A DNA stretch of 9,188 bases from a virus (IMGVR_UViG_2711768069_000008), one strand, 5' to 3'; numbered from the stretch's first letter, positions 1,995 through 3,383 are shown. Notes: generated from the letters alone by a model not told the origin. Program-made: numbers and translations.

Positions 1995-2936
1995 ATGGCT
2001 ACTATTGCGCAATCAAAGAAACAAAAAAAACTTAAAATTGGTTTTTACACCAGCAGTTCTGGGACTATCCGCAGCCATTCAGTTGCTAAGCAAGCAATTG
2101 AAAATCTGTATAATACTTGCGTAACCGTTACGAATAATCATTTTGATACCATCTATAGAAATAAAAAGTTAAAAATAGCTTTTATAAATAAAGATACAAA
2201 AGCTAAATATTTCTTCGGCTACATGTCATGCTCACGAGAAGAGTATCTCCTTCCTTATATTGGTGATGAACACTGGAATGAGCACAACATACCACTAGAT
2301 GATAAAAAATACATAGTCGAAAGAACCTATTTTTTATATTATTACGATAGTGATATTTTAATATTAACTCAAAATCATCTTGGGCCGAAAGAATCGGATT
2401 TAGCTTATCTGCTTTACAGCCAGAGTGGTAATCCTGGAAATAACTTTGCATTCCAAGCCATCTGGAAAAAAGAGAGCGTCAAAGAGCTACTTGAAACAGG
2501 AAGTACTTTGAGAAGTTGTGATATTGTCCTGGCTGCTCCCAGGAACTTTGATGCAACAAATTACCAGCTAAATAGTTCATTTTCTAAGGAACTGGTAAAT
2601 ATGATGGTAGGGCTGGGTGGAACACGTCTCAAGTTAAATCTAAGGGGACGTGCATCAGGGAGAGTAAAAGTCAAAGGTTATTTATCAGATCTCGTTAAGG
2701 ATGGTATTAAAGAACTCCTTGAAAAAATGCCGGGAATTGTAAAAAAAGCGGCAGTAACACAGCCCAAAAATACCGTTGAACAAAGTCTTCTTGATCAGGT
2801 ACTCATTTCAGAAAAAAACATATATACCGTTAATGGTTATGGCACTGATAGTGATGTTCTGCAAGCCATGATTTCTGCTAAAATTGATAACAATGAATAC
2901 CTTAAGCAATACGATATCAGCAAAAAGAAGGTATAG
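1995..2936 (+). CDS. hypothetical protein, cassette gene A (313 aa, soluble, no recognisable catalytic motif)
   Basis: Long ORF on the strand opposite to all neighbours; good RBS; very AT-rich (hand counts about 20-28% GC on lines 2101-2220). Contains 4 AGA, 2 AGG and 6 ATA codons. Stop TAG at 2934-2936. Confidence 0.75.
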   Translation: MATIAQSKKQKKLKIGFYTSSSGTIRSHSVAKQAIENLYNTCVTVTNNHFDTIYRNKKLKIAFINKDTKAKYFFGYMSCSREEYLLPYIGDEHWNEHNIPLDDKKYIVERTYFLYYYDSDILILTQNHLGPKESDLAYLLYSQSGNPGNNFAFQAIWKKESVKELLETGSTLRSCDIVLAAPRNFDATNYQLNSSFSKELVNMMVGLGGTRLKLNLRGRASGRVKVKGYLSDLVKDGIKELLEKMPGIVKKAAVTQPKNTVEQSLLDQVLISEKNIYTVNGYGTDSDVLQAMISAKIDNNEYLKQYDISKKKV

Positions 2937-2939
2937 GAT

Positions 2940-3383
2940 ATGTTATTGAAATACTTAAGAAACCTGATTGTAAGTGTTTTTTGCACCTTGTTCCTACTGA
3001 GGTATATCCCTCAGATGGGGCATGCTGACATACTTACAGCCTCCGGGGTTATTTCAACTGTATCCGGTATTTTATTTGGTTTTATTTTAGCCACAATATC
3101 AATTTTTAGTGCTGCTAGCGAAAACTCAAATGGAATAATAAAAGCATTAAAAAACAACAACATACTTCAAGTTATTATTGTAAATCTATTAACCGCAGGT
3201 GCATCTTTAATTACGGCATGCGTTATTGCTTTGATAGCAATGTTTGCCAATGAAAAGACATTGTTACATGGAGAAAAAATAGAATTTATTTTAATTATCG
3301 AATCGTTATCTCTTCTTATCATTTCAGTAATAACTTTTGCCTTTACATGGAGAAAAGTAAACTGGATACTCCCCCACATTTAA
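2940..3383 (+). CDS. small polytopic membrane protein, cassette gene B (147 aa, about 4 predicted TM helices)
   Basis: ATG at 2940 lies 3 nt after the gene A stop, with GAAGG 8-9 nt upstream (coupled operon). Hydrophobic stretches at roughly residues 8-22, 33-57, 74-101 and 113-136. All three Arg codons are AGA/AGG and there are 9 ATA codons. About 22% GC on line 3121-3180. Confidence 0.75.
   Translation: MLLKYLRNLIVSVFCTLFLLRYIPQMGHADILTASGVISTVSGILFGFILATISIFSAASENSNGIIKALKNNNILQVIIVNLLTAGASLITACVIALIAMFANEKTLLHGEKIEFILIIESLSLLIISVITFAFTWRKVNWILPHI

Follow-up and report, generated by a model that had tools for sequence, protein, structure and literature searches.

A candidate RexAB-type exclusion pair, highly diverged in sequence, as cargo downstream of Q in a lambdoid prophage

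Introduction

What is the role of two AT-rich genes that stand between the antiterminator gene Q and the late genes of a lambdoid prophage and are read in the opposite direction to all of their neighbours? The initial annotation of this locus took the two genes (here A and B) for an undescribed defence or exclusion cassette, in which a soluble sensor would act with a small membrane effector, and pointed to Kiwa as one system of similar architecture. Another candidate for comparison is RexAB of phage lambda, the oldest known and founding abortive-infection system, whose mechanism is still unresolved. In lambda, rexAB belongs to the immunity region and shares a transcript with cI. As of January 2026 the Rex-like systems on record numbered only five (PMC12894663). 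Here we analyse the stretch of viral DNA that carries A and B (IMGVR_UViG_2711768069_000008, 9,188 nucleotides, hereafter the window), together with the relatives of both genes, their predicted structures and the sites at which they are found.

Results

Prophage setting and anatomy of the cassette

The window derives from a lambdoid prophage. Positions 1750-3450 are 99.5% identical to Enterobacteria phage cdtI, in which the counterparts of A and B are orf54 and orf53, both labelled 'hypothetical protein'. Among 5426 complete E. coli genomes, only 25 have prophages that match this stretch, at 99-99.9% identity, and many of these carriers are porcine ETEC or O139 strains; their RefSeq label for gene A is 'DUF6731 family protein'. 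On the minus strand, the window encodes O-like (7368-8282), DnaC-like (6479-7366) and DnaB-like (5082-6482) replication genes, a DUF968/HNH gene (3787-4782) and a Q antiterminator gene of the PF06530 type (3407-3784; Pfam E 5.2e-52), which is convergent with the cassette. On the other side of the cassette lie a small gene (1513-1740) and a DNA methyltransferase gene (304-1362). Two tRNA genes are found in the left part of the window and lysis genes beyond, again on the minus strand, and thus the cassette does occupy the slot after Q, as previously proposed. Q is itself AT-rich (41.8% GC), with a GC3 of 0.34 compared with 0.54-0.60 in its neighbours. The repressor gene is outside the window and is located ~5.6 kb from the A-B pair in the related prophage L002.

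Gene A (313 aa, 1995-2936) and gene B (147 aa, 2940-3383) are both on the plus strand and all other long ORFs near them are on the minus strand, exactly as first described. Shine-Dalgarno-like motifs precede both genes, AAGG 6 nt upstream of the A start (1985-1988) and GAAGG 8 nt upstream of the B start. Translational coupling is plausible, because the TAG stop of A (2934-2936) is followed 3 nt further by the ATG of B (2940), which has its own GAAGG; however, the spacing in relatives varies from overlap to about 20-40 nt. The hairpin at 3382-3405 (AAAAAGGGCA-GAAA-TGCCCTTTTTT) lies between the B stop and the Q stop and folds at -13.4 kcal/mol on the plus strand and -13.0 kcal/mol on the minus strand (z -3.76 and -3.68). 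Given this stable fold on both strands and the flanking A-run and T-run, we interpret it as a bidirectional intrinsic terminator between the convergent B and Q genes. These features agree with the ribosome-binding site and terminator attributed to the cassette. Upstream of A, the AT-rich and cassette-specific region 1928-1994 (plus strand), which starts where homology to cassette-free phages ends (~1927), presumably contains the A promoter; a sigma-70 consensus scan of 1928-1994 found no site.

The GC content of the cassette is 34.6% (A 35.5%, B 32.7%) compared with 51.5% in the rest of the window. The compositional contrast reported earlier is therefore real, but the quoted value of 20-30% was an overstatement, as lines of 60 nt range from 20 to 48% GC with a mean of 35%. 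At 35% GC the cassette could be subject to H-NS silencing in E. coli.

Insertion into a slot after Q

The borders of the cassette can be read from phages that lack it. In the Stx2 phage 1720a-02 nothing separates the Q stop from a stretch with homology to positions 1700-1927 of the window, and beyond this stretch come the small gene and the methyltransferase gene that are also present in the window. Homology to the cassette-free 1720a-02 and PhiR40_1 stops at ~1927 and starts again with Q at 3407, placing the insert at ~1928-3406. Its left border is the conserved post-Q region (1750-1927, minus strand), delimited by megablast and by alignment with 1720a-02; by megablast, positions 1750-1934 match many Stx and lambdoid phages. 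This region is presumed to be the late-promoter and terminator region. Judged by position alone, the late promoter would lie within 1860-1927; a consensus promoter scan yielded no convincing late promoter, and a terminator-like hairpin at 1844-1856 (minus strand) has a weak fold (-7.7 kcal/mol, z -1.3). At the equivalent place PhiR40_1 carries another plus-strand gene, encoding a 148-aa lipoprotein-like product. The presence of a different gene between Q and the post-Q region marks this gap as a cargo slot, whose content varies among relatives (stx, or the lipoprotein-like gene of PhiR40_1).

The pair is conserved, mobile and under purifying selection

Relatives of A down to 35% identity are found in Escherichia, Klebsiella-type bacteria, Citrobacter, Pectobacterium, Cronobacter and Pantoea, and also in Yersinia, Serratia, Rahnella, Xenorhabdus and Vibrio. 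A copy of protein A with 99% identity is encoded in Citrobacter braakii. We retrieved 80 IMG/VR loci with the alignment of A, and every one of them (80/80) has a B homologue (36-100% identity) just 3′ of A. A PF06530-type Q is adjacent to the pair, convergent and 20-50 bp away, in 73/80 of these related viral loci. Moreover, E. coli and Pectobacterium prophages that encode A at 44% and 62% identity, respectively, show a Q-B-A order by the lysis genes. Other contexts also occur: the pair is found among tail genes (locus L087), beside sopE and tail-fibre genes (locus L091) and, in Vibrio, in an island with serine recombinases near toxRS. Co-occurrence of the two genes across prophage and island contexts, which the initial annotation had left to a survey, is shown by these loci.

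The association extends to far more distant relatives. The DUF6731 profile (PF20505) is matched by 110/123 aligned A relatives, and a profile search of the full library (E <= 0.001) recovered 234 clusters at 50% identity, mostly metagenomic. We examined four distant metagenomic members with ~20-24% identity to A; directly downstream of three of these is a gene of 144-153 aa with four transmembrane (TM) helices, and the contig of the fourth stops before any downstream gene. The partners align with B and have in common the TM2 motif S-T-x-x-G-x-L-x-G-F-x-x-A-x-x-S-I.

Comparison with relatives at 82-87% amino acid identity for A and 63-70% for B gave dN values of 0.085-0.31 with synonymous sites saturated, such that no dN/dS ratio is computable for either gene. 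Saturation of dS at so low a dN points to purifying selection on both A and B. Taken together, A and B are real coding genes with homologues in >80 independent loci, and the pair is an evolutionary unit that behaves as mobile cargo.

Gene A encodes a DUF6731 protein with a predicted RexA/RdgC fold

Protein A is a soluble protein of 35.6 kDa with a pI of 9.25 and a Lys-rich N-terminus. It scores above the Pfam gathering threshold for DUF6731 (41.3 bits against a threshold of 27, E 1.8e-10) and also matches one unannotated PHROG. DUF6731 was its only Pfam match, and PADLOC v2 and NCBIfam returned none. Profile searches of the PDB with alignments of 28 and 123 A sequences gave no meaningful match, the eIF2-alpha and IF3 matches (E >= 0.03) being dismissed as noise. 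Our literature search found no paper that names DUF6731.

Structure was more informative. We modelled A with AlphaFold2 on 28 homologues (pLDDT 78, pTM 0.71), and the best Foldseek match of this model in the PDB was lambda RexA (8twq_B; E 4.9e-7, probability 1.0), followed by a far weaker match to E. coli RdgC. RdgC, CHL4 and IML3 are listed as structural relatives of RexA in the paper that describes its structure (PMC11077077). This ranking, together with the known relatives of RexA, places A within the RexA/RdgC fold group, nearest to RexA. The model thus predicts a two-domain RexA/RdgC-type fold for A, rather than an enzyme fold, in agreement with the earlier statement that A has no recognisable catalytic motif.

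At the level of sequence, the RexA models of Pfam (PF15969) and PADLOC, both of which match lambda RexA, did not match A. An hhalign comparison of the 123-sequence DUF6731 profile with RexA fell below significance (E 0.029, probability 1.7%). The alignment is colinear (29-160 against 20-149) and pairs the near-invariant G130-P131...D135-L of A with G-P-x-x-S-D-L of RexA. Comparison of the A family with Sbash gp30 by hhalign was sub-significant or empty. We propose that A is a RexA-like sensor and DNA-binding component.

Gene B encodes a predicted four-helix membrane protein

Protein B (16.1 kDa) is predicted to reside in the inner membrane with four TM helices. Its sole family match is the unannotated PHROG phrog_8552 (E 1.4e-63). 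Searches of B against PADLOC v2, NCBIfam and Pfam found nothing, including with the RexB models of Pfam (PF15968) and PADLOC, which do match lambda RexB. Hydropathy peaks of B lie at 2-20, 37-55, 78-96 and 116-134, almost the same places as in RexB (8-26, 48-66, 84-102 and 116-134). An AlphaFold2 model of B, built from the shallower of two alignments, has a pLDDT of 83.7 and helices at 2-22, 28-62, 75-102 and 114-146. The termini are enriched in Lys and Arg and the central loop contains two Lys and one Glu, a charge distribution that fits a predicted N-in/C-in topology in which the central loop would be cytoplasmic. The same topology has been predicted for gp31 of mycobacteriophage Sbash. In the gp30/gp31 defence system this protein is the RexB-like effector, as proven by experiment, and defence requires its central loop (PMC6426596).

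By hhalign, the B family and a RexB family of 13 sequences have no significant match (E 0.0056, probability 6.5%); the alignment is colinear (18-84 against 19-85) and spans the His-x-Asp loop and TM2. Conserved motifs of B include H28/D30 in this loop, G43/G47/F48 in TM2 and K68/K71 in the central loop. The corresponding comparison with Sbash gp31 was sub-significant or empty. The best structural match of B in BFVD was an uncharacterised 172-aa siphovirus protein (E 0.014, probability 1.00, 24% identity), and the second was a 165-aa protein of Sbash (E 0.064, probability 0.99, TM 0.54/0.50). We take the latter to be gp31 because no annotated Sbash CDS other than gene 31 encodes 165 aa, an assignment by length alone. 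Lambda RexB is absent from the top 50 BFVD matches of B. The E-values of these matches are modest (0.014-0.15), and the fold, a four-helix membrane bundle, is a common one. B may well be homologous to RexB, and we propose that it is a RexB-like membrane effector.

Of the comparisons that had been envisaged for the two proteins, those with Pfam and PADLOC named only DUF6731 for A and nothing for B, and Foldseek placed A nearest to RexA.

Discussion

Fold, topology, synteny and analogy suggest a function for A and B in exclusion or abortive infection, and we consider it fairly likely that the cassette is self-contained prophage cargo (a 'moron') that encodes a highly diverged RexAB-type pair of this kind. 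We envisage that A, which is cytosolic and basic, would dimerise and bind DNA non-specifically, by analogy with RexA. It would sense a superinfecting phage, either through replication and recombination intermediates (DNA or DNA-protein) or through a specific phage protein. Once activated, A would trigger B, which may oligomerise or open and would then depolarise or permeabilise the inner membrane, leading to a drop in ATP and growth arrest. Replication of the incoming phage would fail and the prophage-bearing population would survive. The pair would be transcribed from its own promoter and away from the late operon, with the bidirectional terminator insulating it from Q, and this arrangement could permit expression in the lysogen. 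These steps are modelled on lambda Rex, Sbash, CarolAnn and P. putida RexABpp; the A-B interaction, the trigger and the effect on the membrane are proposals, and so are protection and expression in the lysogen. The sensor-effector cassette of the initial annotation is partly supported, its core finding indirect backing in the RexA fold of A, the RexB-like size and topology of B, the structural resemblance of B to the Sbash protein and the conserved, mobile pair.

Several observations count against a RexAB-type reading. No sequence-level tie to RexA or RexB reaches significance. The pair is convergent with Q and not beside the repressor, the scan found no promoter for A and H-NS silencing is possible. 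The RexA/RdgC fold also serves non-defence roles; RdgC acts in recombination. Moreover, lambda RexA acts on the lysis-lysogeny switch, where it stabilises the lytic state without RexB (PMC11077077).

The similarity to lambda RexAB is one of organisation and structure. As with rexA-rexB, the soluble gene comes first and is followed by an adjacent, co-oriented membrane gene; A has the fold of RexA (PDB 8TWQ), and B has 147 aa to the 144 of RexB and four TM helices. However, there is no significant sequence similarity, A is longer than RexA (313 against 279 aa), and the A-B pair, placed beyond Q and on the strand opposite to it, has a terminator and probably a promoter of its own. The Rex-like systems of lambda, P. 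putida and several actinophages are near the immunity repressor and expressed with it in the lysogen, although this is not universal, whereas the A-B pair is neither next to a repressor gene nor co-transcribed with one. RexABpp of the P. putida prophage P1 (PP_5643/PP_5644) lies downstream of a CI-like repressor, unlike A-B, and RexBpp has at least 181 residues compared with the 147 of B (PMC12894663). For RexABpp, a dimer of the soluble protein that clamps DNA and a ring formed by the membrane protein are reported. An exact pattern for PP_5643 derived from primers had no match in the genome contigs searched, and no DUF6731 match has the PP_5643 termini. The actinophage pairs (Sbash gp30/gp31, CarolAnn gp44/gp43 and Butters gp30/gp31) likewise combine a soluble with a four-TM protein, are expressed from the prophage and defend against heterotypic phages. 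They differ in the length of the soluble partner (337-372 aa), in having no sequence similarity to A or B, and in their high-GC actinobacterial hosts; in Butters, additionally, the soluble protein is the effector. RdgC (PDB 2OWL) is a stand-alone chromosomal protein without a membrane partner. A-B is therefore probably a RexAB-type pair that is unrecognisable by sequence, a known kind of system and not a categorically new one. Accordingly, 'undescribed' is true of the family, which has no PADLOC, NCBIfam or literature record, but not of the kind, for which lambda RexAB is the precedent.

Other explanations have to be weighed against this. The pair may mainly regulate the development of its own prophage, with A, tuned by B, modulating the late-expression switch and exclusion arising as a by-product. 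The RexB-independent role of lambda RexA (PMC11077077) lends this some appeal, as do the tight linkage to one type of Q (73/80 loci, convergent and 20-50 bp away), the AT-rich codon usage common to Q and the cassette, and the precise fit of the insert between Q and the conserved post-Q stretch. We nevertheless regard such a primary role as unlikely. The pair has no Q in its vicinity where it stands among tail genes, next to sopE or in the Vibrio island, which is not phage-like, no Q is seen near the distant relatives on metagenomic contigs, and closely related phages do without the cassette. Moreover, A diverges to 43% identity beside Q alleles that are still ~88% identical, a pattern more in keeping with exchangeable cargo than with a co-adapted regulator. 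Slightly less probable again is a lysogenic-conversion or membrane function of an unrelated kind, for example a host-fitness trait, or a block at the inner membrane that stops DNA entry and involves no abortive infection. The fold of A would then mean no more than a common ancestry with RdgC and similar DNA-binding proteins. The varied cargo of the slot in relatives (stx, the lipoprotein-like gene of PhiR40_1) is compatible with this, as are the missing sequence-level tie to Rex and the non-defence uses of the RdgC fold.

The roles of the two proteins could also be reversed, in a manner resembling a toxin-antitoxin system, with A as a growth-arresting effector that B sequesters or neutralises until infection or loss of the element. 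The Rex-like gp30/gp31 pair of mycobacteriophage Butters works in this way (summarised in PMC12894663), and the anatomy of A-B would fit either partner as effector. The membrane protein, however, is the effector in 4/5 described Rex-like systems (PMC12894663), and the strong conservation of the B membrane helices (S-T-x-x-G-x-L-x-G-F in TM2) is more suggestive of a channel or pore part than of a passive anchor, although the latter is a weak argument. We give this version about one chance in ten. By far the least probable is a Kiwa-like system, with KwaA as membrane sensor and KwaB as effector, as had been suggested at first. The likeness is superficial, as it extends only to a two-gene make-up in which a soluble protein of ~310 aa is paired with a small multi-pass membrane protein. 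There was no KwaA or KwaB profile match (PADLOC, Pfam) and no Kiwa chain among the fold matches. Moreover, the gene order is reversed, with the KwaA membrane gene preceding the KwaB-type DUF4868 gene in Kiwa and the soluble gene coming first here.

Within the RexAB-type reading, a bolder proposal is that DUF6731 and its four-helix partner form a broad, unrecognised Rex-type branch that in enterobacterial lambdoids has become functionally wedded to the Q module. Such a pair would be more than a passenger in a cargo slot; it might, for example, act as a sensor or gate of late transcription that depends on Q, whether in the prophage itself or in a related phage that superinfects. We think this improbable; if true, it would link control of late-gene antitermination to a membrane-based abortive response.

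If A-B is indeed a RexAB-type pair, DUF6731 (~234 clusters at 50% identity) and its unnamed membrane partner would gain a testable role, as a sixth Rex-like lineage beside the five described. Given that Pfam and PADLOC miss A-B, Rex-type pairs would then be far more widespread than sequence tools report. The stretch from Q to the late promoter would be marked as a slot for defence cargo besides toxins. E. coli would have a second, very divergent Rex-like pair, available for side-by-side mechanistic comparison with that of lambda. Lastly, as the pair resides in prophages of pathogens (the CDT-I phage, porcine ETEC, O139), it may shape their infection by phages, therapeutic phages included.

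Genomic context of the Q gene and the cassette

The Q gene (3407-3784, − strand) is AT-rich at 41.8% GC. Moreover, its GC3 of 0.34 and that of the cassette (0.30), which comprises the DUF6731 gene A and the membrane protein gene B, contrast with values of 0.54-0.60 for the DUF968, DnaB and methyltransferase genes. Q adjoins the A-B pair in 73/80 related loci; given this adjacency, it is possible that the two were gained and swapped jointly, as a single block.

On the other side of the cassette, the conserved post-Q region carries two short terminator-like hairpins, at 1844-1856 (− strand; CCGC...GCGG followed by T6) and 1908-1920 (+ strand). 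The former is of modest predicted stability (-7.7 kcal/mol, z -1.3) and is conserved, being also present in phages that lack the cassette; it may represent a late-promoter-proximal terminator that is read through by Q. Directly downstream of the post-Q region is a small gene (1513-1740, − strand), whose 75-aa product matches phrog_331 (E 8.6e-25), a family with no annotated function, and is also matched, albeit weakly, by winged-helix families and by a PHROG described as ‘Ren-like exclusion protein’ (E 0.018). This gene is retained next to the methyltransferase gene in Stx phages. Downstream of the methyltransferase gene lie two tRNA genes, both on the − strand: a tRNA-Arg with anticodon tct (31-107) and a tRNA with anticodon cat (188-263), the latter called as Met by ARAGORN and annotated as tRNA-Ile in the equivalent RefSeq gene. 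The same tRNA arrangement is found between Q and the lysis genes of Stx-type lambdoid phages.

Phage PhiR40_1 carries a different opposite-strand gene (L099 2738-3184, + strand) in the slot equivalent to 1928-3406 of the window, encoding a 148-aa product with a lipoprotein-like signal (MNKMTVLLLSATIISGC...). That this slot can hold another gene points to the gap between Q and the late region being, as it seems, a general hotspot for cargo.

Distribution of the A-B pair

Relatives of protein A were found in only 3 of ~185,000 species-representative genomes. A homologue in Citrobacter braakii ATCC 51113 (L104 5001-5939) is 99% identical by tblastn, a level of identity indicating that protein A has passed between genera recently.

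More distant relatives extend to Vibrio and to marine metagenomes. In Vibrio, relatives of A (341 aa) and B (150 aa) lie at 8001-9478 (+ strand) of L010/L011, on an island with resolvase and large serine recombinase-like genes that is inserted near toxR/toxS and htpG; neither phage structural genes nor Q were seen within 8 kb. In the TARA marine loci L096/L097 (133-3459, + strand) a C5 DNA methylase gene (PF00145) and an overlapping gene for 287 aa that matches no family precede, on the same strand, a distantly related DUF6731 gene and the gene for its membrane partner (145 aa). This arrangement may constitute a four-gene operon in which the pair is tied to modification or restriction.

Lastly, pairs with ~44-45% identity to A-B of the window occur in two further prophages. 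In L091 (pair and neighbours at 324-1744 and 2843-3565, + strand) the type III effector gene sopE lies ~1 kb from the pair and tail-fibre genes adjoin, whilst in L087 (5932-7396, + strand) the pair is flanked by a Bro-N gene on one side and tail genes (DUF6246, Big_2, tail terminator) on the other. Evidently, the A-B pair is mobile among the cargo slots of unrelated phage types.
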